Assembly: GCA_964508365.1 (NCBI GenBank)
Contig: CAZDTP010000004.1
Coordinates: 1,681-65,680, forward strand
Direction of reading: 5' to 3'
Length of the DNA: 64,000 nt
Source of the DNA: an uncultured archaeon
GTDB lineage: Archaea > Asgardarchaeota > Lokiarchaeia > Sigyniarchaeales > SOKP01
The position numbers were made by a program, and so were the translations under genes. Below are positions 9,041 through 44,414 of this stretch, one piece after another (position 1 is the first letter of the stretch; every line of letters begins with the position of its first letter). Under the pieces are notes generated by a model, which saw only the letters and a program-made list of their open reading frames with translations, was not told where the DNA came from and searched no databases.

Positions 9041-9056
9041 AATTATCACCTCCTAA

Positions 9057-10547: not shown

Positions 10548-10572
10548 TTTAATTTAACCTCTTTATTTATTA

Positions 10573-11853
10573 CTAGTAGTGTAGATTTTTAGCAGCTAAA
10601 AACGCTAGTCCGTTTTCAGTTAGAGCTTTAGCTGTTGAATTAACGGCGTCATTTCGATCTATATGATTAATTCGTAATGCATCCCAAAGTCCTGCTTCTT
10701 TAATTTCTTCTTTAGTCATGAAATATTCAAGGATATCTGAAGGATGTTCTCGTTTTTCATCAACTTCAACATTTGCTCCTTCATGTTTAGCACTAACATT
10801 CTTTACTTTACGTGCTAGTTCAAGTAACTCATCCCTTCGGTCGTATGGTTGTCTTACAATCGATTTCCAAGTTTCAGTAATGTGATGCTCAAGCCTTACA
10901 ACATCTTCGAATCCAAACGGTTTTCTTATATACGCTGCCATTTCAAGGGTTTCATTATTAACTGAATTAGCTAAATTAAAACCGATCAATGGACTTGTAC
11001 CATCCTCCCGTGCAAACAATTTAGCGGTTAATAAAGTCCAAAGACAAGAATATGGGTTATCGTTGCCCATATATACACTTATTTTAAATTCGTTGTTAAT
11101 ACCAAGTTTATGGATAAAATACCCTAATAAAACAGTGCCAGGATTTACATTAAGAACTTGTTTAATGCCGTAGTTAGTATAATAGTAAAGAAACTCGTCG
11201 ATCCATTTCAACGCAAAATCGTTTGGTTGTCCAACACCTCCAAAATATCCAGTAATCGTATCAGGACCTCCAAGATGTACGTTTATAGGCATTCCATCTG
11301 GACCTGGTGCCGTACCCTTTGTATCAAGAGTTTCAACCCAAGAAGATCCAATAACTTGCATTGCAGCAGCCATCGCTAATAGATCGCCATCTTCTTCTTG
11401 TTCCTTCATATTTCTTACGCGGATAATCCTTCCAGGGACTAATTTCTGATTTTCAATAGCATCCTTTATAATATCGATAAAAAACGGAAAATATTGGCAT
11501 GCCGAGAGCTCCAGTGTAACAGCAAAATCCTCGTTGAATGTCATTTCAGATGCTTTATCGCCTAAAATCTTTTTCCGATAATCTGCTACGCTTATAAAAG
11601 CCTGTTTATCCCGCTGGGAAATCAACCATTCGAGATTCTTTACATAATCTGAATTCTTTTTTTCCAATTGTGCTAATAGAGTCTCTAATTTACTCGCTTC
11701 TTCTGCTTTTTTATTAATCTCTTCTACTCCCCCATATTTATCTACGATTGTTAAGAGATCATTTACTAACGGATTTTTATCATCAAGGAGAAAATCATTT
11801 ATAACCTTTAACGCAGTGTCTGGAATTTTCAATTTTTTTCTAATGTCTTTCAT
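10573..11853 (-). CDS. Hypothetical 426-aa soluble protein, first gene of the dapA-fae operon
   Basis: Long ORF, co-oriented and 25 nt from the next gene; no family recognised. Confidence 0.8.
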   Translation of the reverse strand: MKDIRKKLKIPDTALKVINDFLLDDKNPLVNDLLTIVDKYGGVEEINKKAEEASKLETLLAQLEKKNSDYVKNLEWLISQRDKQAFISVADYRKKILGDKASEMTFNEDFAVTLELSACQYFPFFIDIIKDAIENQKLVPGRIIRVRNMKEQEEDGDLLAMAAAMQVIGSSWVETLDTKGTAPGPDGMPINVHLGGPDTITGYFGGVGQPNDFALKWIDEFLYYYTNYGIKQVLNVNPGTVLLGYFIHKLGINNEFKISVYMGNDNPYSCLWTLLTAKLFAREDGTSPLIGFNLANSVNNETLEMAAYIRKPFGFEDVVRLEHHITETWKSIVRQPYDRRDELLELARKVKNVSAKHEGANVEVDEKREHPSDILEYFMTKEEIKEAGLWDALRINHIDRNDAVNSTAKALTENGLAFLAAKNLHY

Positions 11854-12061
11854 TTTATCTTTTAACCTTTTTTATCGCACTTAATTTACAGGTTTAAAAT
11901 TCTACCCAGAGAATTCCCATCCTTCCAACTTTCATTGGAAGAAACCATAATCTTAATACTAGTTTCTTTATATAATAAATTTATTTAATGAAGATCAAAA
12001 AGTTTTAACTATATCCAAAACTGATATTTTAAAGGATAAAATAACTGAAGTGGAATAAAAT

Positions 12062-13420
12062 TTGTATAAGTATAAGGTTTCGATTTTAGGAACAGGCTTC
12101 ATAGGGCTCTGTTCAGCAGCCTGTTTTGCCGATAAGGATATTAAAGTGTTAGCTTCTACTCATAACGAGAAAAAAGCTAAAATGATTAATAATGGAAAAG
12201 CTCCTTTTTACGAAGCAGATTTACAAGAAATGATGGACGATATTAAGGCTAACAAGCCAGAATTATTACAATGTTTGCTTGATCCCGTTAAAGCCGTTCT
12301 TGAAACAGATCTTTCTATGATCACTCAAGGTACGCCAATGCGAAAAGATAAAAGCATAAATTTGGGATATATCGAGAGCACAGCTAGAGAAATAGGAGAA
12401 GCTCTCAAACAAAAAGATTCTTACCATCTAGTTGTCGTAAGATCCACAGTTGTTCCTGGTACTGCTAGAAACCTTGTTGGAAAATTAATCACTGAAATTT
12501 CAGGAAAAATTCCGGGAAAAGATTTTGGATTGTGTATGCAACCTGAATTTTTAGCTGAGGGACGATCGATCAAGGATACTTTAAAACCAGATAGAATTGT
12601 AATTGGTGCATTAGACGATAAAAGTGGAGATATGCTCCAAGATTTTTACGAATATTTCTACGGTGATCACCTACAACATTGCCCTATCTTAAGAATGAAT
12701 TTAGAAAGTGCTGAGCTCGTTAAATATGGGAATAATTGCCTTTTGTCTACTAAAATTAGTTACGCAAATGAATTTGCAAACTTCGCTCAATTAGTGCCTA
12801 ATGTCGATATAGTTCAAGTAATGAAGGGCGTAGGTTTGGATTATCGGATAAGTGATCGATTTTTACAAGCAGGAGTGGGATTTGGAGGTTCTTGTTTTCA
12901 TAAAGACGTAAACGCGATCAAAGCATGGTCTAAATCACAGGGATATACTTCAAGATTATTAGAAGCGGTACTTGGAATCAACGATGATCAAGCTATTAAA
13001 ATTGTCGACATGGCGGAAGAACTTGCTGGTAAACTAGCGAATAAAAGGGTTACTTTATTAGGTCTTTCATTCAAACCAGGTACTGACGACATGAGAGAAG
13101 CACCTAGCTTAAGAGTCGTTGACGAATTAATGAATCGGGGCATCAAGAACATAAATGGATACGATCCTAAAGCTAAAGAGACGGCAAAGGTAGAATTTGG
13201 AGATAAGATAAACTATACCGATTCGATTGAAGAAGCCCTTAAGGATTCAGAATGCGCTTTTTTAATAACAGAATGGGACGAGTTTAAAAATCTTACTCCA
13301 GAAGATTTTAAGAAAAGTATGAAAACACCTAATGTAATTGATGGAAGAAGAATATTCGATTACGACAAATTTAACGAAGCTTTACCATTTAGAGCTATTG
13401 GACGCATCAATTTAAAATAA
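12062..13420 (+). CDS. UDP-glucose/GDP-mannose dehydrogenase family
   Basis: GTGFIG, VVRSTVVPGT, PEFLAEG, GFGGSCFHKD, GLSFKPGTDDMRE, YDP, DGRR. Confidence 0.93.
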   Translation: MYKYKVSILGTGFIGLCSAACFADKDIKVLASTHNEKKAKMINNGKAPFYEADLQEMMDDIKANKPELLQCLLDPVKAVLETDLSMITQGTPMRKDKSINLGYIESTAREIGEALKQKDSYHLVVVRSTVVPGTARNLVGKLITEISGKIPGKDFGLCMQPEFLAEGRSIKDTLKPDRIVIGALDDKSGDMLQDFYEYFYGDHLQHCPILRMNLESAELVKYGNNCLLSTKISYANEFANFAQLVPNVDIVQVMKGVGLDYRISDRFLQAGVGFGGSCFHKDVNAIKAWSKSQGYTSRLLEAVLGINDDQAIKIVDMAEELAGKLANKRVTLLGLSFKPGTDDMREAPSLRVVDELMNRGIKNINGYDPKAKETAKVEFGDKINYTDSIEEALKDSECAFLITEWDEFKNLTPEDFKKSMKTPNVIDGRRIFDYDKFNEALPFRAIGRINLK

Positions 13421-13563
13421 TGCCTTAAGGTTTTCTTACATTATTATTATTTTCTTATTTTTTCTTTTTAACTATTATATATAGAAACAATAATTTTATA
13501 GGTAAACTAATATTTCATTACGAGTAACAGAAATAAAATGGAAAATATTAATAAATTAAAAAA

Positions 13564-13812
13564 ATGAAACGATTTACAGATTCCACAGACGAAATAACTG
13601 GAAGTATGATGATCTTGAAAAAAAAATGCGAATTGTGTGGAAAACATTTAAAACTGTATCAGCGTAATTATGATAGACATTACAAATTTGTCTTTATAAA
13701 TATCGCTCAGGAACCCTCCAAACACTATTTTTGCAGTAAAAAATGTAAAAACGAATGGATATTTAACCCAAACAAACATCATATAATTGATCTAAAAATT
13801 CCCAGTTCCTAA
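13564..13812 (+). CDS. Small TRASH/zf-FCS-like metal-binding protein
   Basis: CELCG ... YFCSKKC pattern. Confidence 0.6.
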   Translation: MKRFTDSTDEITGSMMILKKKCELCGKHLKLYQRNYDRHYKFVFINIAQEPSKHYFCSKKCKNEWIFNPNKHHIIDLKIPSS

Positions 13813-13834
13813 AATCATTAATTGGGTTTATAAA

Positions 13835-16270
13835 TCAATTTGACTCGAATTCCTTTTTTATAAAAACTAAGTTCTGCTGGGTATTTGTAATCATATCTGG
13901 AAAGTTTAATTCTTTATAGATTTCAAGCGCTCTTTGTAGATAATCAATGGATTTTTGATAATCTTTCTTATATTTATAGAAAATCATACCTAAATTATTA
14001 AGGGATCTTGCTATCCCAGGTTTAAGCCCTAAATTTTCCATTATATTTAACGCATCAGAATAGTGTTTAATTGTCTCTTCATACCGTCCTAAATCTCCTA
14101 ATATTCCTCCAATATTAGTAAGTTGACTAGCTATACCTGCTAAGTTATTCTGTGATTGTTCAATCTGTAGTGCTTTTTTGTACTCCTCAAGTGCTTTTTC
14201 AAATTCTCTCCTTATTTCATAGATAGAAGCACGGTTTCCATACCGGACAGCTAGATTTTTTTTTTCCCCTATTTTCTCCGTAAGTTCAATAGATTGATTT
14301 ATTAATTCAAAAGCGGTATCATAATCTCTATTAGTACGATAAACCATTCCAATATTATTTAAAGTCGTTGCTTGACCAGATAAATCCCCAATCTTTTTTC
14401 TTATCATCAGAGATTCATTATAATATTTCATAGCTAAATCTTTTTTTCCACTTTCATAATGAATAACTCCAATTGAATTGGCAGCTAAAGCCTTGATATT
14501 CAGGTTCTGAATTTTATCTGCAGTTTGATATGCTCTTCCAAGATATTGTAATGCTTGTGAATATTGCCCAGCTATTCTAAATATGTTTCCGATAGTATTC
14601 AACGTTGAACACATATTGTCTAAATCTCCGAGCTGCTCATTAATCTTAAGAGCTTCAGAAGAATTTTTCAAAGCAGGATTTAACAATCCCTGTGAGGTTT
14701 GGATTCCCGCTAGATTATTATAACATAAAGCTTTGCTGAATAAATCACCAGTGCGTTCGGTTATTTCGAGAGCTAGCTCAAAATTTTTTACTGCATTGTC
14801 GATATCTCCATTATCTCTATATAATGTTCCTAAATTATTCAAAATAGAGAATTTTAATACAGCAGGAGTGTCATTTGTCATTATGTTAGATGCTTCTGAG
14901 ACATATTTAAAAGCATTCTTTAGATCACCTTTCTTTCGAGATAATTCTCCTAAATTCAATAGAACACCTAATTTTTCGTTAAATTGATTTAATTTTTCTG
15001 TTAGTTCAAGAGTATGTTCAAAATTTACAATCGCTTTATCGTATTCTCCTTTGGAAAGATAAACTAGACCTAGGGCGTTAGTAAAATAAGTTTGATTCAT
15101 ATTTTCTTCCTCTTCTTTTGATAATGTTAAACCTTTTAAAGCAGTCCTTTCCGCGGATTCAATTTCGCCCAGATCATAGTAAATTTCATGAGCAAGTCTG
15201 TATTTTGAGGATTGAGATGCGTTAAAATGATTATCTTTCATATAATCATCAAAACTAAGAACTTCATTAGTTGTACCTATTTTTAGAAACTCAAATGATT
15301 CATTATAGATAGGAGCTAATTTATCTGTTACAAAGTTTAAGGTCTTTGTTTTAATTTTGTAGATGTCATTATTATTAAGCGAAGAAAGTTCTGCGAGCAT
15401 TTTATCCAATTTATTTATTTCAGTGCTAGAATTTAATTCAGAGATATCTTGTACTGGTTTGTAATAATATATTTCATACGCTCCCGAAATAGCATCTGGA
15501 TCGTGATCTATCCAAAAAATTCTCTTTATAGTATTTAATTCCTTTAGCATTGGACTTATGTCGAAATCATCGCTACCCGAATAACCCATAATGACAAGAT
15601 CCCTATCTTGCATTACCATGTTAATCAATTTTTTCTTATATGTCTCTATAGCAAATGTCTTACCTTTTTCCTTATCTTTTCCAAGAGTACTAATCGTAGT
15701 TATTAATGAATCTTTAGTTGATCTTCCCTTAATGCAATCCCATTTTGAACCATGAATTTTAATCACAGGGAACTGATTTATAATATCTTTATCATAATCT
15801 TCTTTAGTTATGATTACCATGAGCTTCGCGTGAAAGTAATTAAATATAGGATAGATTGAAAGCTTTTTCTGCATCGCAGTCTCGAGAAGATAATCAAAAT
15901 TGGTCGTTATGACATAGTTATACCTCATAATCATATTTGCTAAGAAATAATGGATTGCATTAGGTTCCTTAACATTATCTAAGTAATCAAGAAATTTTAC
16001 ATCCTTTTCAAATAAATTTTGTACTTTTTCAACTAAAAATTCATATCTCAAAGATTCTAAGGAGGATAACTTATCTTTTTCCTCTTCGGGAGCATAATAT
16101 TTGAATAGACCTTTCACAAACATTCTCGCAGATGGTACGTTAGATGGAGGGTCCATCGAGATTCCTGCTCCGACCAAAAAGGTATATATTTTCTTTTCAG
16201 AAAAAAGATCTTTAAAAATTTCTTCTTGATTCTCTTCTGAAATCTTATTAGCAATGTCTTCAATTTTCAT
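13835..16270 (-). CDS. SIR2-like domain + tetratricopeptide repeat protein
   Basis: FLVGAGIS, TTNFD, KIHGS, GYSGSDDFDI in the N-half; about 11 repeats of ~40 aa (LNNLG/IG..Y...G.Y..A) in the C-half. Confidence 0.88.
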   Translation of the reverse strand: MKIEDIANKISEENQEEIFKDLFSEKKIYTFLVGAGISMDPPSNVPSARMFVKGLFKYYAPEEEKDKLSSLESLRYEFLVEKVQNLFEKDVKFLDYLDNVKEPNAIHYFLANMIMRYNYVITTNFDYLLETAMQKKLSIYPIFNYFHAKLMVIITKEDYDKDIINQFPVIKIHGSKWDCIKGRSTKDSLITTISTLGKDKEKGKTFAIETYKKKLINMVMQDRDLVIMGYSGSDDFDISPMLKELNTIKRIFWIDHDPDAISGAYEIYYYKPVQDISELNSSTEINKLDKMLAELSSLNNNDIYKIKTKTLNFVTDKLAPIYNESFEFLKIGTTNEVLSFDDYMKDNHFNASQSSKYRLAHEIYYDLGEIESAERTALKGLTLSKEEEENMNQTYFTNALGLVYLSKGEYDKAIVNFEHTLELTEKLNQFNEKLGVLLNLGELSRKKGDLKNAFKYVSEASNIMTNDTPAVLKFSILNNLGTLYRDNGDIDNAVKNFELALEITERTGDLFSKALCYNNLAGIQTSQGLLNPALKNSSEALKINEQLGDLDNMCSTLNTIGNIFRIAGQYSQALQYLGRAYQTADKIQNLNIKALAANSIGVIHYESGKKDLAMKYYNESLMIRKKIGDLSGQATTLNNIGMVYRTNRDYDTAFELINQSIELTEKIGEKKNLAVRYGNRASIYEIRREFEKALEEYKKALQIEQSQNNLAGIASQLTNIGGILGDLGRYEETIKHYSDALNIMENLGLKPGIARSLNNLGMIFYKYKKDYQKSIDYLQRALEIYKELNFPDMITNTQQNLVFIKKEFESN

Positions 16271-16364
16271 TTTCTACCTCTTATCAAAAATAGTTACTAA
16301 AAATAAATATATAGAATGTCTTAAAGTAAACGGTAAGGTTTGAATATTATTAATTCAAAATATT

Positions 16365-17201
16365 TTAACCAAAAAGAATTTGCTTAATTTTTGTAATTCT
16401 ATCGTTTCGAGATAGACGCTTGGTTAGTGGGTTATGATCTCCATATAATCCTTCATGATATACCGGTCTTTGGGTCTTATAGAAAACACCTAAAGTATAC
16501 CTATGTTTATTTTTAGCCGTTTTCATTGCTTCCTCATAAGTTTCAGGTAATTTTTCAAGAAATTCTACTTTTTCTCGATACTCGTTCCAGGAATGATAGG
16601 GAACGGCAGGTTGTAATACTTCGATAAAAGAGAAACCTTTATGCTCGATCGCTTGAATTAAGACATCTGTGAGATGAGTAATTTCTCCAGCAAATGTTCT
16701 GGCAATAAAAGTTGCTCCAACTTCTAGCATTAACGATATAGCGTTAAATGGTGTTTCAAAACTTCCTCCAGGAGTAGAAGGTCCTTTCCATCCCTTCTCT
16801 GTCAAAGGAGAATACTGGCCAGTGGTTAATGCATACACGCTATTATTATGCAATATCATGGTGATATCCTGATTTCTTTTGGCTGCGAATATTGTATGAG
16901 CTAAACCTTCACCTAATCCGTTTCCGTCTCCAGAAAAAGTTATAATTTTTAAATCGGGATTTGCTATTTTCATCCCTTCAGCATTCGAGCTATTTCGTCC
17001 GTGCAGCCCATAAAGTCCGCTTAAATTGAGATAATCAAAGATTTTTGCGTGACACCCAATACCCGCAGTAATTACAATATCTTTTCTATTGATTCCTTTT
17101 GCTTCCAGCTTTGGAATAGCGTTTCTTAAAGCGGTAAAAATACCAAAATTCCCACAACCAGGACACCAAGTAATTTCGGCGTTAGTTTTAAGATTTTCCA
17201 T
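16365..17201 (-). CDS. korB: 2-oxoacid:ferredoxin oxidoreductase beta subunit
   Basis: TWCPGCGNFG, GIGC, LHGR, GDGNG..EG, NNSVYALTTGQYSP; start at MENLKT. Confidence 0.92.
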   Translation of the reverse strand: MENLKTNAEITWCPGCGNFGIFTALRNAIPKLEAKGINRKDIVITAGIGCHAKIFDYLNLSGLYGLHGRNSSNAEGMKIANPDLKIITFSGDGNGLGEGLAHTIFAAKRNQDITMILHNNSVYALTTGQYSPLTEKGWKGPSTPGGSFETPFNAISLMLEVGATFIARTFAGEITHLTDVLIQAIEHKGFSFIEVLQPAVPYHSWNEYREKVEFLEKLPETYEEAMKTAKNKHRYTLGVFYKTQRPVYHEGLYGDHNPLTKRLSRNDRITKIKQILFG

Positions 17202-31840: not shown

Positions 31841-34075
31841 TTAAGGTTCAAAAGTGCACCGATCTGTATCACAAAATTTCTCGCCGATTGCCCTATCTTT
31901 TGTTTCATCTAAAAATAAAGGTTTTATTTTAGAAATCATTTCTTCGTATTTCTCCTGCGAAATTTCTTCGTAAGGCGCCTGTTTGTATCCGTGCTCTTTT
32001 ATTGGCAAGAAACTCGCGCTTTTTAGCTTATCTTCAAAGCATTCAAGAACATGTTTGATCTGATCTGCTTCATGTTGCTGAAATGTAATTGTAATAGACA
32101 CTTGGTTGTCAGACCAATATTTCTGATAATCTGCTGCATTTTGTGCTTGCTCCCATATAGAAACATCATTTTTAGAACGAACGAAATATTTTTCGTGTAC
32201 AGGAAATTCTACTACAATGGTATTGGGGGAATAAAGATCATCTTCAACAAAATATCCTGCCTTCTTTATAGGTGTTATCAAGTCTGAATTCTTAGAAATA
32301 CGTATCCGTCTAATATAATACTCAGAATGAGGGTAATGGATTCCAGGAGGGACACCTGGAAGGAGGCTTACCGTTCCACTCGGTTTAACAGTTGTTATTT
32401 TAATACTTTTTGGAATGCAAAGCCAACCAGAATATTGTTCGTCTAAAGCCTGAAGATATTCATATCCTTTATTAGACCATTCCAACATTGTTCTCCTGCC
32501 GTTTTTAACAAAAGCCTCAATTATTCCTGTTTGTGAAATTCCCATTCTTCTATTTTTAAGCATTACTGCGTTGGTTTCTTGCCAATGAGTGTTAACGAGG
32601 GTTACGGACTTAGAATAGAGATAAGCGAACTTCAATGTCTCTTGAAACTCCTCATACGAATCGTGGCGTGATGGAAAGCTTTCTACAAGGCAACAAAGTT
32701 CGAAGCTTTCGAGTGTCTGTTCTCCACAAGGATTTACGCCAGCAGCTTTCTTATCTTTATAATCTGGCTTATCTCCCATTCGGGAATACGCCTTTGCGTT
32801 ATCCAACCAAAAAATTCCAGGTTCTCCATTTACTGCAATTTGATCAGCAATAAAGGAATAATCTAATCCCTTAACAGCAAAAACACTATTATTACTTGCC
32901 CATCGATGAGAATAAAGTTTTTTTTCGTCTTGTTTAGAGGTTATGAAATCCAAATCAGTAGCATCTCCAAGAGCAATTTCAGCGCTCCTCCTAACATTTC
33001 CTGCTACGACACATTTTCCAATTAAATTCATGATGTCTAAAATATCGATGGAAGTTATATGTTTACTTATTTTAGCCTCAAGAATTTTCTGAACGCTTTC
33101 TAGCATTTCCTTTAATGGAGCTGGACCGCTAGCAATTCCTCCAAAACCTCGAATGGGTTCACCCGCAGATCTTATTAAGCTATAATCAAAAACAGGGAGC
33201 TGTTTCCCTAAAAAAAACGCTTCTAGAACTATTCGAAGTGCTTCTACCCAACCTTCTCTACTGTCAGGAATCTTAATATCAGCAGTACCTTCTTGAGGTT
33301 TCTTAATAGTTATTTTTCCCGCACCTTTTGTATCGAACCCTACACCAACACCTAACATTAGAGCATCCATTACAAACTCGAATGCTTTTGAGTATTTCAA
33401 ATCAATATCTTCAGTAGAAGCAAAGCCACAATTATTCAACGACATTGACCCATGCCGGGCAATAAATTCAGTGCCCATCATCCAAAGACCTCTTCCAGGA
33501 GGTAAGAACTTAAAATCCCATATTTTCTGGTACATGGTCTGAGCTGATCTTTGAGCTTTTGAATCGCTCCAAGGCAGGCTTAACGTCATACAATGTTCCT
33601 TTTGTATCGAATAGCAACCTTCAACGACCCTTCTAATAGTTTCCCAAAACTCCTCTTTCCTCCCTTCTTTTTCAATAAATCGGGCATATGTTCTTTTATA
33701 TGTAATGTATCCTAATGGCCCCCAATCTGGTTGTTTCCCTTTGATTTTATTAATAAAATCTTCGTCTAATTTAAATGAGATGCTTTCTAAATTGATAGCA
33801 CGAGCAAATAAATTTCGATATTTATTCAAACCTCGTTGAGTTAGTTCTACACACACTAATTCCCTTATGTGGTTAGTAGTTATTTCATCAATACCAAGTC
33901 CAATTATTTTACGCACGACATCCTCTGTAACTTTCTCTGCGATGTGTATGTCAAGCCCTGTTTCCTTATTTAAAACCTTAGCAATACTGGAAACATCAAA
34001 CTCTTTTTTTTCACCTTTAGAGTTAATTACATGCTTAGGATATAAATCTACTAACGAAAACGAATTATCGGTCAT
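31841..34075 (-). CDS. nrdJ: Class II (B12-dependent) ribonucleotide reductase with N-terminal ATP cone
   Basis: PPGRGLW, NNC, VVAGNVRRSAEIALG, NPCGEQ (radical Cys), TTVKPSGT, C-terminal CDTDRC; N-terminal VINSKGEKKEFD cone. Confidence 0.92.
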   Translation of the reverse strand: MTDNSFSLVDLYPKHVINSKGEKKEFDVSSIAKVLNKETGLDIHIAEKVTEDVVRKIIGLGIDEITTNHIRELVCVELTQRGLNKYRNLFARAINLESISFKLDEDFINKIKGKQPDWGPLGYITYKRTYARFIEKEGRKEEFWETIRRVVEGCYSIQKEHCMTLSLPWSDSKAQRSAQTMYQKIWDFKFLPPGRGLWMMGTEFIARHGSMSLNNCGFASTEDIDLKYSKAFEFVMDALMLGVGVGFDTKGAGKITIKKPQEGTADIKIPDSREGWVEALRIVLEAFFLGKQLPVFDYSLIRSAGEPIRGFGGIASGPAPLKEMLESVQKILEAKISKHITSIDILDIMNLIGKCVVAGNVRRSAEIALGDATDLDFITSKQDEKKLYSHRWASNNSVFAVKGLDYSFIADQIAVNGEPGIFWLDNAKAYSRMGDKPDYKDKKAAGVNPCGEQTLESFELCCLVESFPSRHDSYEEFQETLKFAYLYSKSVTLVNTHWQETNAVMLKNRRMGISQTGIIEAFVKNGRRTMLEWSNKGYEYLQALDEQYSGWLCIPKSIKITTVKPSGTVSLLPGVPPGIHYPHSEYYIRRIRISKNSDLITPIKKAGYFVEDDLYSPNTIVVEFPVHEKYFVRSKNDVSIWEQAQNAADYQKYWSDNQVSITITFQQHEADQIKHVLECFEDKLKSASFLPIKEHGYKQAPYEEISQEKYEEMISKIKPLFLDETKDRAIGEKFCDTDRCTFEP

Positions 34076-36276: not shown

Positions 36277-36807
36277 TCATATTATTCCATACATTCCACT
36301 TTCAGAATCTAAGAAAATTGGGAGGTTTGGAGGAAAATATGTGAAAATTATAAATAATAAACCTAATGTTATGAATATTATCCAAGAAACATAACTAACC
36401 CATTTAGCCTTCTCTCCTAATGACATAACTTTAGCACTTACATATTGACCAATAAAAACTCCGATAATAAAACTTAGGATATCAATTATTAATAGTTCAA
36501 CTCCTAGAATAGCTGTGTAAGTATAAAAGGTTATTAATATTACACTTAAATCAATTGAAATGGCTAAGGTCTTTGCAAATATCAAATTATTTGAATCTAC
36601 TTTGATAAATTTAAGTTCTAATAAAGAGTAGATTATTAATGGCCAGTATGGTAACTTCAAGTGCTCCCATACGCTCTCATTTACCGGAAAGATACCACCT
36701 ATGGGAGGCCAACTCCCTAACCACTCAAACATAAAATGGAATAATGCTCCTACAATGCTAATAAAAATGGCACCAAAAATTTCCCACTTTAATAATTTTT
36801 TATTCAT
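36277..36807 (-). CDS. DUF6512-like membrane protein
   Basis: HFMFEW, PVNESVWEHLKL motif and several TMs. Confidence 0.7.
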   Translation of the reverse strand: MNKKLLKWEIFGAIFISIVGALFHFMFEWLGSWPPIGGIFPVNESVWEHLKLPYWPLIIYSLLELKFIKVDSNNLIFAKTLAISIDLSVILITFYTYTAILGVELLIIDILSFIIGVFIGQYVSAKVMSLGEKAKWVSYVSWIIFITLGLLFIIFTYFPPNLPIFLDSESGMYGII

Positions 36808-36972: not shown

Positions 36973-37372
36973 TCATATTTCTATTTCAGTGTCACGAAAA
37001 TATTTAAGCTTCTTATAAAGGGATTTTTCTTTCTCAAAGCCCAATCGAAACTTGTCAATTCTTGGGCAATTAGTATCAAATCCACATCATTTTTTATCCA
37101 AATCATGGATTAAAGGATAATATATACATCCTTTTTGATGTAGTTCGTAGATTTTACATAGTTTGGTCTTTATATCTAAAAAATACAATGCCCTTCTACT
37201 TTAATGATTTGACAAAATCCCTCATTATTTAATTTAACAATTTTATCTTTCTTTAGATTTGTCTCAAAGTCCTTAATAATCAAGAATAGATCATTTTCAG
37301 ATAGAATAATTTCAGTTTCTAAGCAGATTTGCCAAAATCTTTACAAAGATTAATTTTTAAATGTTTTCCCAT
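36973..37372 (-). pseudogene. Decayed YkgJ/CxxCxxCC Fe/Zn-chelating paralogue
   Basis: Aligns by eye to 42991-43389 (CKDFGKICLETE; CKIYE...GCIYYPLI..LDKK*C.FD..CP); frameshift near 37190 and in-frame TGA at 37087-37089. Confidence 0.75.
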
Positions 37373-37481: not shown

Positions 37482-38393
37482 ATGACTGTTGAAGTTGAAG
37501 AATTAGATTCTGCTGACTCTAAAGAATCAAAAGAAGAAGTCACTAAAGAAAAAATTAAACTCCAATTTCATTGGTATTTGAGCATACTCTTTATAATTTA
37601 TTACTTATCTTATATCGTCTCTGGAGTCATTTTTCTGAGTTATATTATTTTTATATTTATTCCAAATGTCTTGTTAGTAGATAACCTCATTACGATATTC
37701 ACTAATCTTAAATCATTATTGGCTTTTTTAGCTTTACCTTTAGTTATTATGGTTAGTTATTTATCTCGCTTATTTATCACAGGATTGATAACTCGAATTT
37801 TCTGGAGATTAACTGAGAAAAGAAGCCCGACGAAAGATGGTATAATTCCACGAAATATCCCTTCCAAAACAGCTAATTATTACCATATAAGATCATTTAT
37901 GATAAAATATGGAAAAAACGCATTTATGAAAGGAGTGTTCCCGTGGCTGGCACCCTGGTTCTTTAATTATGTGGGAACTGGAATTATTAAAAGGGGCTCT
38001 ACATTAGAAGAATCCGTTGTTACAGATAAAAATATAAATGTCGGAAAAAATTGCTATGTTGGTTGCAATTCTGCATTATCCTCTCACTTTGTTGAAGGAA
38101 TATTTGGCAATATCGTCTATTTCGAAATCAAATTGGGAGAAAACACCACGCTCGGAGGATTTAACAATATTGCACCTGGATGTGAGCTAAGCGATAACTC
38201 ATACCTTTTACCAATGGCGGCTGCAACAAAACATAATACAACTAAAGGAGATAATTATTACTTTGGCATGCCCTTACGTCGTATTTTTAAGAAAAAGGTT
38301 ATGGATTACTTAAAAGTGAGTGAACAGGATTTATCTCGAGCTGAAGAATTAAGAATTAAACAAGAAAAAAAAAAATTAGAAAGACTAAATTGA
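37482..38393 (+). CDS. 2-TM + left-handed beta-helix protein (paralogue A1)
   Basis: Two TM helices, then hexapeptide-like turns (INVGKNCYVG, IKLGENTTLG), SHFVEG and YFGMP. Confidence 0.8.
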   Translation: MTVEVEELDSADSKESKEEVTKEKIKLQFHWYLSILFIIYYLSYIVSGVIFLSYIIFIFIPNVLLVDNLITIFTNLKSLLAFLALPLVIMVSYLSRLFITGLITRIFWRLTEKRSPTKDGIIPRNIPSKTANYYHIRSFMIKYGKNAFMKGVFPWLAPWFFNYVGTGIIKRGSTLEESVVTDKNINVGKNCYVGCNSALSSHFVEGIFGNIVYFEIKLGENTTLGGFNNIAPGCELSDNSYLLPMAAATKHNTTKGDNYYFGMPLRRIFKKKVMDYLKVSEQDLSRAEELRIKQEKKKLERLN

Positions 38394-38440
38394 GCGATTT
38401 AGTAATATTTTAATTGAAATGGAGAGGAATTTATTAGATT

Positions 38441-39361
38441 TTGATTGAAGATACAAGTGATTCTGGACCTGAACTTCAACGGGAAATAGTTCAATTCCAG
38501 TATCAGAAATACATAGCCTTCTTCTTTTTTATTTATATAGGTTCTTATTTAGCGCCAGTCATAGCTCTAATGTTTTACCTTTTCTTAATTTTAAAACCCT
38601 TATTCTTAGAGGTAGACAGTTTTATTGTTATACTCACTAGTTTTGATTCTTTGATTATTTTTTTAACCCTCCCACTTGTAGTTGTTTTCTTCTATTTATC
38701 TCACCTATTTTTCTTAGGAATTTTTACACGAATTTCATGGAGATTTACAGAGAAGAGATCTCCGACTAAAGACGGGATAATTCCTCGTGATATTCTTTCA
38801 AAAACAGCAGATTACTACCACTACAGAAGTTTTATGATTAAATACGGCAAGAATGCTTTCATGAAAGGAATTTTCCCTTGGTTGGCAAATTGGTTTTTTA
38901 ACTTTGTTAAATCAAGCAAAATTGGAAGCGGATCCACCCTTGAAGAATCTGTAGGTAATGATAGACATATTGATGTTGGAAGAAATTGTTATATTGGAGT
39001 GAATTCCATATTAGCTTCTCATGTTGTTGAAGGTATTTTTGGTAACATCGTCTATTTTAAAGTAACAGTAAAAGATAATGCAACGCTCGGAGGTTTTAAT
39101 ACCATAGCTCCTGGGTGCGAGTTAAGCGAACATTCTTATTTATTGCCAATGGCTGCAGCAACAAAATTTAATACAACTAAGGGAAATAATTACTATTATG
39201 GTATCCCTTTTAGGCGGATCTTCAAAAAGAAGCTAATGGAATACATAAAAGTTAGTGAAGATGACTTGAATAGGGCAGAAGAACTAAGAATTAGGCAAGT
39301 AAACGCGAAACTCAACAGTTCAAATAAAGAAGAAATAAACAATAAAGAAAAACTAAATTAA
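38441..39361 (+). CDS. 2-TM + left-handed beta-helix protein (paralogue A2)
   Basis: Close paralogue of A1 (EKRSPTKDGIIPR, RSFMIKYGKNAFMKG, SHVVEGIFGNIVYF). Confidence 0.8.
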   Translation: MIEDTSDSGPELQREIVQFQYQKYIAFFFFIYIGSYLAPVIALMFYLFLILKPLFLEVDSFIVILTSFDSLIIFLTLPLVVVFFYLSHLFFLGIFTRISWRFTEKRSPTKDGIIPRDILSKTADYYHYRSFMIKYGKNAFMKGIFPWLANWFFNFVKSSKIGSGSTLEESVGNDRHIDVGRNCYIGVNSILASHVVEGIFGNIVYFKVTVKDNATLGGFNTIAPGCELSEHSYLLPMAAATKFNTTKGNNYYYGIPFRRIFKKKLMEYIKVSEDDLNRAEELRIRQVNAKLNSSNKEEINNKEKLN

Positions 39362-39379
39362 AGACATATGTGAAATAAA

Positions 39380-40300
39380 ATGACAGAAGAAGAAAAAGAT
39401 GAGCAAAAAGTTGTTAAGGAAGATGATGACACGGATGAGGACTCAGAATTTATTATAGACTTTACAACAAGCTCAGCAATAAATAGAGTAAGTTTGAAAT
39501 TTTTAGTTGTGTATATCCCAATATTCTGGTTTAGCGGTTTAGTAGTAGCTACCCTATGGTATAATTATACTATTAGTCCAGTACCTTGGGTTATCAAATT
39601 ATTGTTTTTACCTGTTTTATTGATAGCATTTTCGTTTCTTTTCATATTTAGCTGCTGCTTCTTCAGTAAATTATTGCTTATATTTATTAACCTTATTCAT
39701 GTCCCCAAAGAAGGAATATTTCGCACTGAAAAAGGTGATACTGACTTTGAATTTTGGAGATTAAGAACCGAGATTAAGAAGATAACTTTATGGCTAATAA
39801 GAAATTGGCCTCTACCCTGGATTGATGTGATAGCTTTTCGTTGGTTTGGAATTAAGATGGATTTTTCAAGCCATTTAAATGATTCATGGTGCGATGCTGA
39901 ATTTATTTCTTTTGGCAAAAACGTGACGATCGGCCAAGGCGCGGCGATTATGAGTTCAATGGTGGTAGGTAATTACCTCATCATTAAAAAGATTAGATTT
40001 GATGACTATTCACTTGTAGGAGGTCAGAGTACTATCGCCCCGGGAACGCATTTTGGGGAAGATACGGTGCTCGGTGCGGTGTCTGTAACAACCTTAAATC
40101 AAGAATTAGAAGACGGCTGGATCTATTCGGGTATACCAGCTAGAAAATTAAAACCCAACCAATACGCTGAAATGCGAAGAGATATTATTCATAAAGTAGA
40201 TGTCGATGGGAGAGAAAAAGTCGAAACTGAGCACGAAGTTAATATTGATGACGATAAAAAACATCTAATTAAACAAGATGATGGAGGTGTTAACGAGTGA
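39380..40300 (+). CDS. 2-TM + left-handed beta-helix protein (paralogue B1)
   Basis: Two TM, PKEGIF, ISFGKNVTIGQGA, GEDTVLG, GWIYSGIPA. Confidence 0.8.
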   Translation: MTEEEKDEQKVVKEDDDTDEDSEFIIDFTTSSAINRVSLKFLVVYIPIFWFSGLVVATLWYNYTISPVPWVIKLLFLPVLLIAFSFLFIFSCCFFSKLLLIFINLIHVPKEGIFRTEKGDTDFEFWRLRTEIKKITLWLIRNWPLPWIDVIAFRWFGIKMDFSSHLNDSWCDAEFISFGKNVTIGQGAAIMSSMVVGNYLIIKKIRFDDYSLVGGQSTIAPGTHFGEDTVLGAVSVTTLNQELEDGWIYSGIPARKLKPNQYAEMRRDIIHKVDVDGREKVETEHEVNIDDDKKHLIKQDDGGVNE

Positions 40301-41193
40301 GTACACCAAACTCAATGCGAGTCGGTCCTTTCTGTGCTAGCGTGTTAGTTAAAAAAAAGTACTTGATAGCATACATTTTTTTAATTTGGATAAGTCTGCT
40401 TCCCGCGATATTGGAAATTTGGTGGTACTGGCAGATGTTATGGTACGAGCCGCGACCAATTCACTTTTACATATTTCTACCCCTTTATTTATTCGTTATC
40501 TATGTTACAACTGTTCTTGTCGCCATCTTTTTCGCAAAAATTATATTAGTGATCGTTAACATTTTCCATAAACCTAGAGAGGGGGTGTTCCTTAGAGATC
40601 CTTCTGATAGGGATTACCGTTATTGGAGTCTTAGAAACACGATAAAAAAATGGCCAACTTGGCTCGCACATAAATTTCCATTTCCCTTCTTAGATAACAT
40701 ATGTTTTAAAATGTTTGGCGTAAAAACTAAATTTTCTAACTCCCTTTTTGAAGGTTGGGTAGATACTGAGTTTATAGAGTTCGGTTCTAATGTTGTTGTT
40801 GGTCAAGGTGCGATTATTCAATCTTCAGTAATTATAGGAAACTTTTTAATTATCAGAAAAACAGTTATCGAAGAAAACGTACGAGTTGGGGCACATGTAA
40901 TAATTATGCCTGGAACCCACATAGGAAAAAACTGTATTTTAAATACTTGGTCTTCTACAATGGTTGGACAGGAATTAGAAGAAGGGTGGATATACAATGG
41001 TGGTCCAGCAAAAAAGTTTAAGAAAAATAGGTTTTTTGAAGATATTCCAATTGAAAAACTTACTGAAACTATCGGAGACATGGACGGATTACTAAAGAAA
41101 TACGATGATCAATATGTTAAGAGAAAAATGAAAAAAAGGAAATTTCTTACTCGAAAAGATAAAGAGGAAAATGCCACGGAAGAAAAGGAATGA
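40297..41193 (+). CDS. 2-TM + left-handed beta-helix protein (paralogue B2)
   Basis: Paralogue of B1 (PREGVF, IEFGSNVVVGQGA, GWIYNGGPA); GTG start overlaps the B1 stop. Confidence 0.8.
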   Translation: MSTPNSMRVGPFCASVLVKKKYLIAYIFLIWISLLPAILEIWWYWQMLWYEPRPIHFYIFLPLYLFVIYVTTVLVAIFFAKIILVIVNIFHKPREGVFLRDPSDRDYRYWSLRNTIKKWPTWLAHKFPFPFLDNICFKMFGVKTKFSNSLFEGWVDTEFIEFGSNVVVGQGAIIQSSVIIGNFLIIRKTVIEENVRVGAHVIIMPGTHIGKNCILNTWSSTMVGQELEEGWIYNGGPAKKFKKNRFFEDIPIEKLTETIGDMDGLLKKYDDQYVKRKMKKRKFLTRKDKEENATEEKE

Positions 41194-41984
41194 ACATGAA
41201 AATTGGATACGTACAAACTTCTCCAATTTTTGGGGACAAGGAGAAAAACTTTACACAAGTTAGGGACTTACTCGACAATGTTAAAGCGGATTTAATTGTA
41301 CTACCAGAGCTATTTGCTACAGGATACACTTTTGTATCAAAAAAAGAAGCAGAATCCTTAGCGGAACTTCCTGTTGGGAAAACTTCTGAATTTTTAATAG
41401 AACTTGCACATAAAACAAATGCAATTATTGTTGGAGGATTTATTGAAAAAGAAAATAGTCAGATATATAACTCTTCTCTAATTGTTTCGAGTAAGGGAGT
41501 TCTTGGCACTTATAGGAAACTCCATCTTTATTACAAAGAAAAACTATGGTTTTCACCTGGAAACCTGCCTTTAAAGGTTTATGAAATAAATAAAGTTAAA
41601 ATAGGAGTTATGATTTGTTTCGATTGGTTTTTTCCTGAGACGCCGCGCACTCTTGCTCTCCTAGGAGCAGATATTATAGCTCATCCCGCTAATTTAGTGC
41701 TTCCTTATTGCCAGAATGCTATGACAACCCATTGTTTAGTTAACCATGTATTTGCAATAACATCAAATAGAATAGGGCACGAAGCCAGAGGAACAGATAG
41801 TTTTACATTTACGGGAGGTAGTCAGATAACTTCGCAAAAGGGGAGTATAATATCTTCAGCGCCAACAGATCAAATTTTTGTAGATTTTACTGAAATCGAT
41901 GTAAATCAAGCTAGGGATAAGAGCATCAATATTTATAACAACCTTTTAAAAGATCGAAGACCAGAATTTTATCACATGAAATAA
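41190..41984 (+). CDS. Carbon-nitrogen hydrolase (nitrilase superfamily)
   Basis: Glu-Lys-Cys triad: LPELF, YRKLHL, ICFDW; ATGA overlap with B2. Confidence 0.92.
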   Translation: MNMKIGYVQTSPIFGDKEKNFTQVRDLLDNVKADLIVLPELFATGYTFVSKKEAESLAELPVGKTSEFLIELAHKTNAIIVGGFIEKENSQIYNSSLIVSSKGVLGTYRKLHLYYKEKLWFSPGNLPLKVYEINKVKIGVMICFDWFFPETPRTLALLGADIIAHPANLVLPYCQNAMTTHCLVNHVFAITSNRIGHEARGTDSFTFTGGSQITSQKGSIISSAPTDQIFVDFTEIDVNQARDKSINIYNNLLKDRRPEFYHMK

Positions 41985-41996
41985 ATTATTTTACTC

Positions 41997-43004
41997 ATGA
42001 AGGCAGCTATATTTGACGGGCGAGAGATTCAGATCAAGGAGATTCCTAAACCCGTCCTTAAAGATACTCAAGTTTTAATTCAAGTTAAAGCAGCAGGAAT
42101 TTGTGGAACAGATTTGGCCATAGCGAACGGTCATCTCCCTGTACCAATACCTCTAGTCTTAGGACACGAATTTTCGGGCATAGTTGTAGATATTGGTAAA
42201 AAAGTGAATCCCGACTGGTTGAAAAAACGAGTTACTTCTGAAATAAATAGCAATATTGATTTTAGTTGTTTTTTCTGTCAAAGGGATATTACATCCCAGT
42301 GCGAATCTCGGAAAGCATTGGGAATCGATATTAATGGAGCTTTTGCTGAGTTTATAGCTGTTGACTCTTATCTACTACACGAATTACCCGATAATATATC
42401 GTATAAAGAAGCTACATTTATCGAACCACTAGCGGCAGCATATCAAACTTTCGAAACAATGCCTTTAGGAAGCGATGATAAAACAATTGCAATTTTCGGA
42501 CTCGGAAAATTAGGATTATTACTCTGTCAAGTTGCTGTAATTAAAGGATTAGAGGTAATAGGAATGGATCACTCAGATAGAAAGCTTAATTTAGCTAAGA
42601 ATTTTGGGGTAAAGCATTTAATTAATAATAATGAAAATGAGAGTGTAGAAGGTAGGATAAAAAAAATAACAGGAAATCTTGGTGCCGATATCGTTGTTGA
42701 CACCACCGGTAATCCAAATGCTCTTAAAGAAATTGTTTCTTCCTGTAGAAGTAGAGGTAAAATCCATATTAAAAGTACTCATGGTTTAAAAACTCCAATT
42801 AATCTCACTGATATTGTAGTAAGAGAAATTACCATATATAGTAGTAGGTGTGGACCATTTCATAAAGCTATTGATGGACTAAGTTCGGGATTAATAAATG
42901 TTAAAGATCTAATTTCGAAAGAATTTAAATTAGAAAATATAGCTGATGCTTTTAATTCTTATAAAAAGAGTAGAGATCACATCAAGACCATCATTTTAAT
43001 TTAG
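41997..43004 (+). CDS. Zn-dependent medium-chain alcohol dehydrogenase
   Basis: GICGTD, GHEFSG, CFFC...C, GAFAEF, EPLAA, GLGKLG. Confidence 0.9.
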   Translation: MKAAIFDGREIQIKEIPKPVLKDTQVLIQVKAAGICGTDLAIANGHLPVPIPLVLGHEFSGIVVDIGKKVNPDWLKKRVTSEINSNIDFSCFFCQRDITSQCESRKALGIDINGAFAEFIAVDSYLLHELPDNISYKEATFIEPLAAAYQTFETMPLGSDDKTIAIFGLGKLGLLLCQVAVIKGLEVIGMDHSDRKLNLAKNFGVKHLINNNENESVEGRIKKITGNLGADIVVDTTGNPNALKEIVSSCRSRGKIHIKSTHGLKTPINLTDIVVREITIYSSRCGPFHKAIDGLSSGLINVKDLISKEFKLENIADAFNSYKKSRDHIKTIILI

Positions 43005-43389
43005 CGAATAAAATTTGGCTTTCTAAAAAGTTTTTAATCTCCTCACATGTTTTTAGAGCGATCTCTTTATCTGGATATAATAATTTGGGTTTCGGACATT
43101 CTTCATCAAATATACATTGTTTTTTGTCCGAATCATAAATTAGTGGGTAAAAACGGCACCCTTGTGGTCTCACTTCGTAAATTGTACACAATTTAGCAGC
43201 ACTATCAAAGAACACACAGTAACCTTTAACATTTTTCAATAGATTAAATCCTTCCACGGTTTTTCGTACAAAATTGGCTATTTTTAAATGTTTAGGGTTA
43301 TTATTTTTAATAAGATCAATATCATTAGTAGATAAGAGCATCTCTGTTTCAATACAGCATTTTCCACAATCCTTACAGATATTTTTCAT
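42991..43389 (-). CDS. YkgJ-family cysteine-cluster protein
   Basis: CKDCGKCC, CVFFD, CTIYEVRPQGCRFYP. Confidence 0.88.
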   Translation of the reverse strand: MKNICKDCGKCCIETEMLLSTNDIDLIKNNNPKHLKIANFVRKTVEGFNLLKNVKGYCVFFDSAAKLCTIYEVRPQGCRFYPLIYDSDKKQCIFDEECPKPKLLYPDKEIALKTCEEIKNFLESQILFAKLK

Positions 43390-43706: not shown

Positions 43707-44414
43707 TTATTTGAGTATAAAATATAATCTCCTATTATCTTTTCCTTTATTGACCGTTTTGGTCATCTCAATTTCTCCAATTTCTTTAAGACTCTTAACG
43801 TGGGTTCCACCGTCAACTTGTTTATCGATTTCTCCAATTTTTACTATGCGGAATTCTTGTAAATTTTTAGGTAAGCCAATTGCTAATCTTGCTAGCTCGG
43901 GTTCTTCTAAGACAGCTGCTCTAGACATCGTCTCAATAGTGATTGGAAGGTCTTGTTTAATTATTTCGTTTGATTCCTTGACATAGGTCCGCAACTTTTC
44001 TGGTGAATAATCCTCCATAGAAAAATCCATTCTTGCTTTATCCAATTCAATCTGGTTACCCGTGATTTTAGCGTTCGCTCTCCGGAATAGTAGATTTGAA
44101 ACGAGATGACAAGCAGTATGGTATCGCATATATGTATATCGCCTCTCCCAATCGATTTCGCACATAACTGCATCTCCTTCTTTTAGTCCGGGTATTTCTA
44201 CTTCGTGACTGATTTCTCCAGAAAATTTACCAACATAAACTACCTTGAATTTCTCACCATTTTTGATTATATAACCTTCGTCCCATGGTTGACCGCCTCC
44301 TTTAGGATAAAACGCAGTTTGATCTAGAGTAATATATTTACCATCCTTTACACCGACTACTTTAGCGTCCCATTTCTTCAAATATGAGTCGTTCATATAT
44401 AATGCATTCGTCAT
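43707..44414 (-). CDS. alaX: Alanyl-tRNA editing protein AlaX (AlaXM type)
   Basis: TAFYPKGGGQPWDEG, MRYHTACH (HxxxH), DGGTHV. Confidence 0.93.
   Translation of the reverse strand: MTNALYMNDSYLKKWDAKVVGVKDGKYITLDQTAFYPKGGGQPWDEGYIIKNGEKFKVVYVGKFSGEISHEVEIPGLKEGDAVMCEIDWERRYTYMRYHTACHLVSNLLFRRANAKITGNQIELDKARMDFSMEDYSPEKLRTYVKESNEIIKQDLPITIETMSRAAVLEEPELARLAIGLPKNLQEFRIVKIGEIDKQVDGGTHVKSLKEIGEIEMTKTVNKGKDNRRLYFILK

Follow-up and report, generated by a model that had tools for sequence, protein, structure and literature searches.

The closest described systems to the proteins discussed here are the terminal domains of the Pls/PosA non-ribosomal peptide synthetases (NRPSs; Pls is polylysine synthetase). 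In an AlphaFold model, the PosA terminal domain has six membrane helices in three pairs, each of them joined by two further helices to a left-handed beta-helix (LbH), and its three five-turn LbHs pack like the trimers of sugar-nucleotide acyltransferases (PMC10522769); as of a 2023 paper, no experimental structure of a Pls/PosA terminal domain existed. Here we describe a cassette of four genes—A1, A2, B1, and B2—in a 64,000-nucleotide stretch of DNA (hereafter, the window) from an uncultured archaeon (Lokiarchaeia; Sigyniarchaeales; SOKP01), which covers positions 1,681-65,680 of the forward strand of contig CAZDTP010000004.1 in assembly GCA_964508365.1. We propose that the four gene products are probably subunits of a hetero-oligomeric LbH acyltransferase, embedded in the membrane and pseudo-threefold symmetric. 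Judged from sequence and gene context, it would most likely transfer acyl groups from a thioester (acyl-CoA) at the membrane. Our literature searches found no publication describing this Asgard family, in agreement with the first-pass annotation of the window, which knew of no description from archaea.

The four genes lie on the forward strand, and the window is AT-rich, with a GC content of about 27-35% around the cassette. A1 (37482..38393; 303 aa) and A2 (38441..39361; 306 aa, TTG start) are followed by B1 (39380..40300; 306 aa) and B2 (40297..41193; 298 aa, GTG start); in a close relative, G159, ATG stands at the matching positions as the start codon of both A2 and B2. A1 and A2 are 47 bp apart, A2 and B1 18 bp apart, and B1 and B2 overlap by 4 bp, a tight spacing that indicates an operon. 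B2 overlaps the next gene, a carbon-nitrogen hydrolase, by another 4 bp, and a Zn-dehydrogenase gene begins 12 bp after the hydrolase.

Hydropathy shows two peaks of transmembrane (TM) strength in every one of the four proteins, followed by a Pro/Gly turn, then a helical linker, then hexapeptide turns that run up to a terminal (Y/W)xGxP; P-x-x-(x)-G follows the second TM helix (TM2) in all four, and Y260, G262, and P264 of the terminal motif are invariant. All of the features of archaeal 2TM-LbH proteins are found here, namely two N-terminal TM helices, a linker reading P-x-x-G ... W/Y-x-x-R ... P-x-L, and an LbH ending in (W/Y)xGxP. Open reading frames, hydropathy, and alignments thereby confirm the gene layout given in the first-pass annotation: four genes for two TM helices, a linker, and hexapeptide turns with the (W/Y)xGxP ending. 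The AlphaFold2 (AF2) model of A1 contains a confident helical hairpin (residues 29-64 and 69-113) and linker helices (129-149 and 154-164). A short, uncharged loop with basic flanks connects the TM helices; by the positive-inside rule, the LbH should therefore face the cytoplasm.

All four proteins match generic hexapeptide families (PF00132 / PF14602); B2 scores 40.2 bits, above the Pfam gathering score of 27, and A1 (21.9), A2 (22.4), and B1 (17.9) fall below it. Profiles of the A and B families match LpxD (E 7e-8) and LacA (E 2e-5) in the PDB, and the best PDB sequence matches of B2 include complex-I CAL/CA subunits; sequence searches of the PDB gave generic LbH matches only, with no solved Pls terminal domain among them. 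Identity is 62% between A1 and A2, 38% between B1 and B2, and about 21% between A and B (E 2e-9).

The two types are told apart by a single histidine. The loop motifs are SHFVEG in A1 and SHVVEG in A2, with SSMVVG/SSVIIG in B1/B2, the His-versus-Ser difference on which the first-pass annotation had built. In A1 this residue is H202, within the loop SSH[FV]VEG, and His occupies the position in 42/42 A-family sequences; the equivalent column holds Ser or Gly in B1 (52/52; His in 0/52) and Ala, Ser, or Thr in B2 (57/57; His in 0/57). Searched by profile against the PDB, the A family places this His opposite His115 of the E. coli galactoside acetyltransferase LacA (1KQA), a residue whose change to Ala costs LacA about 90% of its activity (PMC12775004). 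The confinement of His to A would imply one active site per heterotrimer, with A1 as the proposed catalytic subunit and its paralogue A2 probably an alternative one; the earlier suggestion of a catalytic A and a non-catalytic B is supported by the LacA alignment and by the lack of this His in every B sequence.

The same count recurs in single-chain relatives. Alignment of all repeats places His in repeat 3 only (QTHLFE) in four Pls/PosA-type NRPSs, and in repeat 2 only (LLPHA) in five of six bacterial stand-alone three-repeat proteins examined; the sixth, P0479, has just two scored repeats and carries His in both. In single-chain forms from Asgard, it lies in the middle repeat, which is A-like. 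Archaeal single-gene relatives (217-240 aa; those of named source are from Thermoplasmata and Nanoarchaeota) retain the His in nearly all cases. The simplest reading of these alignments is that the homotrimers would have three active sites and the differentiated trimers one.

Gene order in relatives indicates which subunits belong together. Among 13 loci cut from relatives, A-B1-B2 occurs as three separate genes at eight loci in four further genera of the same family, and an A+B pair occurs in two genomes of a sister family (same order). The window's own genus has multiplied A, with two copies in the window genome and G109 and three in G159. Because relatives carry A-B1-B2 and the A1/A2 duplication is lineage-specific, the functional unit to which sequence comparison points is the triad A-B1-B2, not two pairs. 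The first-pass annotation was thus right about the kinship of two paralogue pairs and about conserved A+B pairing, which is borne out across the relatives' loci, and its two-pair unit gives way to the triad. In the A-family tree, A1 and A2 form distinct clades, each with G159 and G109 orthologues, and A1 differs from A2 with a nonsynonymous rate (dN) of 0.29 and a synonymous rate (dS) of about 2.0 (saturated), giving dN/dS of about 0.14. From the separate clades and this ratio, the duplication is best described as old within the genus and kept under purifying selection, as had been suggested; the accompanying claim that the differences are mainly synonymous does not hold, with 38% of residues differing.

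Gene fusions follow the same plan. Second cassettes in many genomes consist of an A~B1 fusion (580-650 aa) and then B2; others have a B2~A fusion (about 520-670 aa) and then a B gene, and a Promethearchaeota protein of 797 aa carries B2~A~B1 in a single chain. At all fusion junctions the two partners are adjacent in the cycle A>B1>B2>A, and the repeats total three in every system examined within the window's own family—the pattern that would be expected of a ring of three different subunits with fixed handedness. The family is also widespread: close B2 homologues were found in 40/40 family genomes searched and in 3/3 same-order genomes, usually in several copies (11 or more matches in most of the 40), and B1 and B2 proteins are 60-90% identical across genera. 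Other Asgard families have dispersed single 2TM-LbH genes, and a feature search of the ESM Atlas returned nothing beyond the family's own clusters. The window genome holds six such genes, these four and one pair on another contig. That second locus (contig C55; 6091-7704 of the excised locus L031, reverse strand) has a His-bearing upstream gene (FSHLIYQ) and a His-less downstream gene, with a calcineurin-like phosphoesterase gene immediately after the pair.

We folded the candidate heterotrimer from A1 (residues 22-290), B1 (30-272), and B2 (12-256), using family alignments. The complex scored 0.54 (runs 0.54, 0.52, and 0.63; best control 0.01), the runs agreed in at least 79% of contacts, and partner pLDDT (predicted local distance difference test) was at least 64. 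This is graded as 'weak support', a mark reached by 58 of 80 solved complexes and two of 110 mismatched pairs; passing scores at 0.60 or under came from just seven of the 80 solved complexes and from both passing mismatches.

In the arrangement we favour, single copies of B1, B2, and an A-type subunit (either A1 or A2) would form a ring in the fixed sequence A>B1>B2. Their TM hairpins, one from each, would make up a six-helix membrane bundle, and their LbHs, each preceded by two linker helices, would pack in the cytoplasm like ordinary LbH trimers. A single composite active site would lie at an A/B interface, with the general-base His supplied by A alone and with B1 and B2 serving as scaffold and substrate-binding walls. 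The reaction would take place at the membrane, where an amine or hydroxyl group would accept an acyl or aminoacyl moiety from a thioester. This donor would most likely be an acyl-CoA, possibly made by a nearby PaaK/GH3-fold ligase, and candidates for the acceptor are lipids, polyamine-like molecules, and exported products. It is the physical heterotrimer, its single active site, its cytoplasmic orientation, and its donor that we infer here.

The first-pass annotation had likened the four proteins to the repeats of the NRPS terminal domain, the subject of model TIGR02353, and a hidden Markov model (HMM) search bears this out in part. TIGR02353 is the best NCBIfam match for B1 (E 9e-10) and B2 (E 6e-11), with scores far below the cut-off of 423.1 bits (A1 no match, A2 10.9, B1 37.5, B2 41.5); true members score 471-612 bits, and the LbH part of the model finds matches in all 14 control genomes. 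A B-family profile searched against 1.8 billion representative proteins recovers single-chain three-repeat proteins, the bacterial ones at E 1e-31 to 1e-45, and also proteins of 1410-1713 aa at E 1e-23 to 1e-26. The latter are genuine Pls/PosA NRPSs, with TIGR02353 scores of 471-578 bits and an adenylation domain. P0475, considered as a stand-alone TIGR02353 protein, was dropped since its record is a partial NRPS. One bacterial three-repeat protein of 680 aa, P0436, heads a run of genes (8001-16407 of locus L048) for an EryCIII-like (GT1) glycosyltransferase, a GMC oxidoreductase, a short-chain dehydrogenase/reductase (SDR), a sugar nucleotidyltransferase, and an epimerase/dehydratase, which could be a glycolipid or glycoside acylation pathway; another bacterial three-repeat protein carries an N-terminal SDR domain.

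Profile-profile comparison extends this likeness beyond the LbH. Aligned with hhalign to 12 Pls repeats, the B family gives a probability of 99.3% (E 8.8e-21, 181 columns) and the A family 97.8% (E 1.2e-12, 179 columns), and both alignments span TM2, the linker, and the LbH. The motifs of Pls and Asgard B are collinear: after TM2, K-W-x-L-L-G…P-G-x-Y-P in Pls and K-L-L-L…P-K-E-G-x-F in B; in linker helix 1, W-S-x4-R-x-W and Y-W-S-L-R-x2-I-K-K-W; in linker helix 2, G-T-P-x-L…L-G-A-K-I-G and F-P-x-P-x-L-D…F-G-V-K; and at the C-terminal end, W-x-G-S-P-A and W-I-Y-x-G-x-P-A. On these profile and motif comparisons, the Asgard subunits share repeat-level homology with the Pls/PosA terminal domain. 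The outcome that the first-pass annotation would have taken as fatal—grouping with ordinary O-acetyltransferases, no NRPS likeness, and no A+B pairing—was not seen, given the 99.3% hhalign result and the conserved pairing.

Homology does not make the cassette a split Pls. In a tree of 51 repeat units (IQ-TREE, LG+C20+F+G4, with support from the Shimodaira-Hasegawa-like approximate likelihood ratio test, SH-aLRT), all 12 Pls repeats form one clade (98) and all 12 bacterial stand-alone repeats a separate one (100); Asgard A (99) and Asgard B (99, with B1 and B2 subclades) are unresolved among archaeal single-gene proteins. The tree is limited by short divergent sequences, a 'quick' search, a midpoint root, and only four Pls-type sequences; a FastTree of 75 units gives the same topological picture. 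Orthology of Asgard A with the His-bearing Pls repeat 3 (C3), an idea fixed before any tree was built, is rejected by the approximately unbiased (AU) test (delta lnL 44.7, p-AU 0.0019). Because the tree and this test set the Asgard subunits with archaeal single-gene proteins, the triad appears to be a parallel invention from an archaeal single-gene, His-bearing 2TM-LbH family, and the 'split' Pls repeats of the first-pass annotation are not upheld. The distinct clades of Pls, bacterial stand-alone, and Asgard repeats likewise suggest that triplication and the loss of two His occurred separately in each lineage.

The genes around the cassette offer candidates for donor supply. An adenylate-forming enzyme (P0366; 34608..36230, reverse strand, 540 aa) lies about 1.25 kb upstream of A1 and is divergent from it. 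No Pfam or NCBIfam model matches it even at E 10; its AF2 model (pLDDT 89) was compared with the PDB using Foldseek, and its neighbours are PaaK-family acyl-CoA ligases (E 1e-12), GH3 amido synthetases (1e-10), and NatL2/AjiA1/ClxA. Given these fold matches and its conserved P-loop HTSGTT, YVASE, and DxGD motifs, P0366 is, as modelled, an ANL-fold adenylate-forming enzyme of a family missed by current profile libraries. It is possibly the maker of the acyl donor, with a loose association to the cassette: a homologue lies within about 6 kb of cassettes in eight further genomes, from genera g1 and g2 only. A 556-aa gene with no Pfam match beside the triad of another genome (G144; locus L027) was considered as a divergent P0366 and rejected (hhalign probability 0.2%). 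The window genome encodes 16 AMP-binding ligases; two of the AMP-binding genes (C62:5373-6461 and C101:5386-6474) have identical scores (334.1 bits) and 524-aa frames, and may stem from a contig present twice in the assembly or from duplication in the very recent past.

Other neighbours recur to different extents. A DUF6512 protein (36277..36807, reverse strand) is co-oriented with P0366, and the same pair is divergent from the cassette in L025. The carbon-nitrogen hydrolase (nitrilase superfamily; 41190..41984, forward), whose start overlaps the stop of B2, probably belongs to the same operon; it immediately follows B2 at four loci of g1 and g2 (L018, L019, L025, and L026), and in none of the other genera examined. 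The final gene of the run encodes a Zn-dependent, Tdh-like medium-chain dehydrogenase (41997..43004, forward), which adjoins cassettes in L018-L021, L025, and L026. A CxxCxxCC protein (PF03692, YkgJ-like; 42991..43389, reverse) is a recurrent and often divergent neighbour (L018-L021, L023, and L025-L027), and a decayed, frameshifted second copy, matched by tblastn in two frames (E 4.5e-15), lies on the reverse strand at 37060..37331, within the 670-bp spacer that precedes A1. In four genomes (G077, G171, G129, and G192), the intact CxxCxxCC gene is followed by a second cassette, either an A~B1 fusion or B2 with an A-type gene. The window has no second cassette between its intact CxxCxxCC gene (42991-43389) and an AlaX gene (43707-44414), which suggests that one was lost from this position. 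A class II (B12-dependent) ribonucleotide reductase gene with an ATP-cone (31841-34075, reverse) also adjoins the locus and is syntenic in several g1/g2 genomes, probably through inherited gene order.

More distant relatives add to this picture. In a metagenome-assembled genome from Thermoplasmata (4663-6690 of L070), a single 2TM-LbH gene overlaps the end of a split PaaK/CapK-like ligase (open reading frames of 220 and 212 aa), in a run that also holds polyprenyl synthase, UbiE-like methyltransferase, and lycopene-cyclase-family genes; ANL motifs are seen in the ligase fragments, with no significant profile match to P0366. A Nanoarchaeota single-gene relative adjoins an ADP-forming acyl-CoA synthetase. 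Taken with the Asgard and bacterial loci, these neighbours make it more likely that the donor is an acyl thioester (acyl-CoA) and that the acceptor is associated with the membrane.

Several observations weigh against the heterotrimeric acyltransferase. The A1+B1+B2 complex does no better than 'weak support', and since LbH trimers are abundant in the PDB, its score may show likeness to known structures more than binding; additionally, the LbH part of the A1 monomer is poorly modelled by AF2 (pLDDT 36-68). With HMMER, the TM and linker part of the B profile has no match in true Pls NRPSs and reaches only 15-21 bits against bacterial three-repeat proteins, so it is the three LbH repeats that make the Pls matches significant, and the case for homology across TM helices and linker rests on profile-profile comparison and motif order. 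B2 also conserves His elsewhere (H125 in all sequences, H91 and H200 in 98%), and the B subunits could be catalytic in another way. P0366 was found in 30/46 family genomes and was not found in G144, which is estimated to be 100% complete; its linkage to the cassette in two related genera could be inherited synteny. The flanks also vary between genera and provide no consistent substrate clue: elsewhere they include alpha/beta hydrolase, MBL, PHP, DedA/VTT, PhoU, PfkB, adenylate kinase, and aconitase genes, with no common theme.

A rather unlikely alternative is that the cassette encodes a carrier-independent polyamide (poly-amino-acid) synthase. In this case iterative amide formation and export of a cationic polymer would proceed as in the Pls/PosA terminal domain, the GH3/PaaK-like ligase would activate the monomer instead of adenylation and thiolation (A-T) domains, and the C-N hydrolase would trim the product or provide self-protection. 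The repeat-level homology speaks for such a synthase, with the same one-His-in-three layout, as do the amide-forming GH3 enzymes and NatL2/AjiA1/ClxA among the fold neighbours of the adenylating enzyme and the translational coupling of B2 to a gene of the amidase family. In Pls the growing chain is held non-covalently (PMC9205021), and a carrier would thus be needed for the donor only. Yet a search for the PP-binding carrier domain PF00550 found none in the window genome (estimated to be 100% complete) and gave matches in 11 of 14 control genomes. The Asgard subunits group with archaeal single-gene proteins rather than Pls repeats, and by HMM score they are nearer to the bacterial non-NRPS three-repeat proteins found in sugar/SDR operons; many cassettes lack the ligase and many lack the hydrolase, and we know of no polymer from these archaea. 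The polyamide-polymerase function put forward in the first-pass annotation is the less likely reading, with no PP-binding domain in the genome and A-T domains missing. We hold it equally doubtful that the triad and the PaaK/GH3-fold ligase form a carrier-free polymerizing or conjugating membrane machine, its product threaded through the six-helix bundle. If true, triad and ligase would be an independently arisen archaeal analogue of polylysine synthetase, and the third independent conversion of a homotrimer into a single-site pseudo-trimer, after the Pls-type NRPSs and the bacterial three-repeat proteins.

There is only a slim chance that the genes encode four independent homotrimeric, membrane-anchored O- or N-acetyltransferases, adjacent through tandem duplication. 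LbH acyltransferases are normally homotrimers, the single-gene 2TM-LbH relatives in other archaea and Asgard families are dispersed rather than clustered, and the generic hexapeptide matches of all four proteins would suit this arrangement. Against it, the order A-B1-B2 is strictly conserved, fusions total three repeats and keep the cyclic order, and the one-in-three His pattern is seen in single-chain relatives too; the identity that the His-less B1 and B2 maintain across genera also points to strong selection without the usual catalytic base. It is very improbable that the cassette encodes a non-enzymatic membrane scaffold, similar to the gamma-carbonic-anhydrase heterotrimer of plant/protist complex I and with a structural LbH ring and a vestigial His: the complex-I matches of B2 and the two His-less subunits are compatible with this, but the His is invariant in A, in a conserved loop aligned with a known active site, and several cassettes per genome fit diversified substrates better than one scaffold.

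The system is of interest on several counts. A strongly conserved membrane enzyme family, multi-copy in most genomes searched, has so far been labelled only 'hypothetical' or 'DapH/DapD/GlmU-related'. The triad would be a natural three-piece version of the Pls/PosA polymerization-domain architecture, whose catalytic residues are undefined, and it leads to a prediction for Pls—that the single His of repeat 3 (QTHLFE) is the catalytic base. One His in three, apparently evolved three times, suggests a general route from a homotrimer to a single-site, pseudo-trimeric membrane acyltransferase. The membrane and surface chemistry of Asgard archaea attracts wide interest, and the enzyme could make a lipid, a component of the cell surface, or a secreted molecule. 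Overall, the first-pass interpretation stands in its Pls/PosA repeat homology, its A+B association, and its catalytic A, and falls in its two pairs and its split Pls; for polymerase activity in particular, no supporting evidence emerged.

The proposed enzyme can be placed among known LbH systems as follows. LbH O-acetyltransferases of the LacA/Maa (GAT/MAT) type have the hexapeptide fold in common with the Asgard subunits, and the catalytic His115 of LacA falls in the A-family His column; unlike the Asgard subunits, these enzymes are soluble homotrimers with three identical active sites and no TM hairpin or linker helices. The gamma-carbonic-anhydrase/CA-like unit of complex I is a membrane-associated LbH heterotrimer in which some subunits lack catalytic residues. 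Its CA-like chains (e.g. PDB 7a23 and 7aqq) appear among the PDB matches of B2; it has metal site chemistry, and a TM hairpin is not present in every subunit, making the likeness one of analogy only.

Nearer to the cassette are the archaeal single-gene 2TM-LbH proteins (about 220-240 aa; Thermoplasmata, Nanoarchaeota, and other Asgard), annotated only as 'hypothetical' or 'DapH/DapD/GlmU-related', which share the layout and have His in the same loop. They are dispersed, His-bearing, and presumably homotrimers, whereas the window encodes a differentiated triad with two His-less members. The bacterial stand-alone proteins (about 650-690 aa) have three TM-LbH repeats without A-T domains, like the Asgard sum, and are nearer to Asgard B than Pls is by HMM E-value (1e-31 to 1e-45 versus 1e-23 to 1e-26); they differ from the Asgard triad in being one chain and a separate clade (SH-aLRT 100).

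Compared with Pls/PosA itself, the Asgard proteins have the same unit of a TM pair, two linker helices, and a five-turn LbH, would be expected to use it three-fold in agreement with the AlphaFold description of PosA, and have a single His-bearing repeat per three. Of the features that define TIGR02353, they share the repeat-level homology; they differ in score, in three repeats per chain, in adenylation and thiolation domains, and in common descent. Unlike Pls, which carries its repeats on one chain, the Asgard systems spread theirs over three genes (sometimes two or one), and the four proteins have no adenylation or thiolation domains. Their repeats do not appear to be orthologous to C1-C3, and the triplications on either side are probably independent—the cassette would thus share with Pls an architecture reached from a related building block by a separate path.

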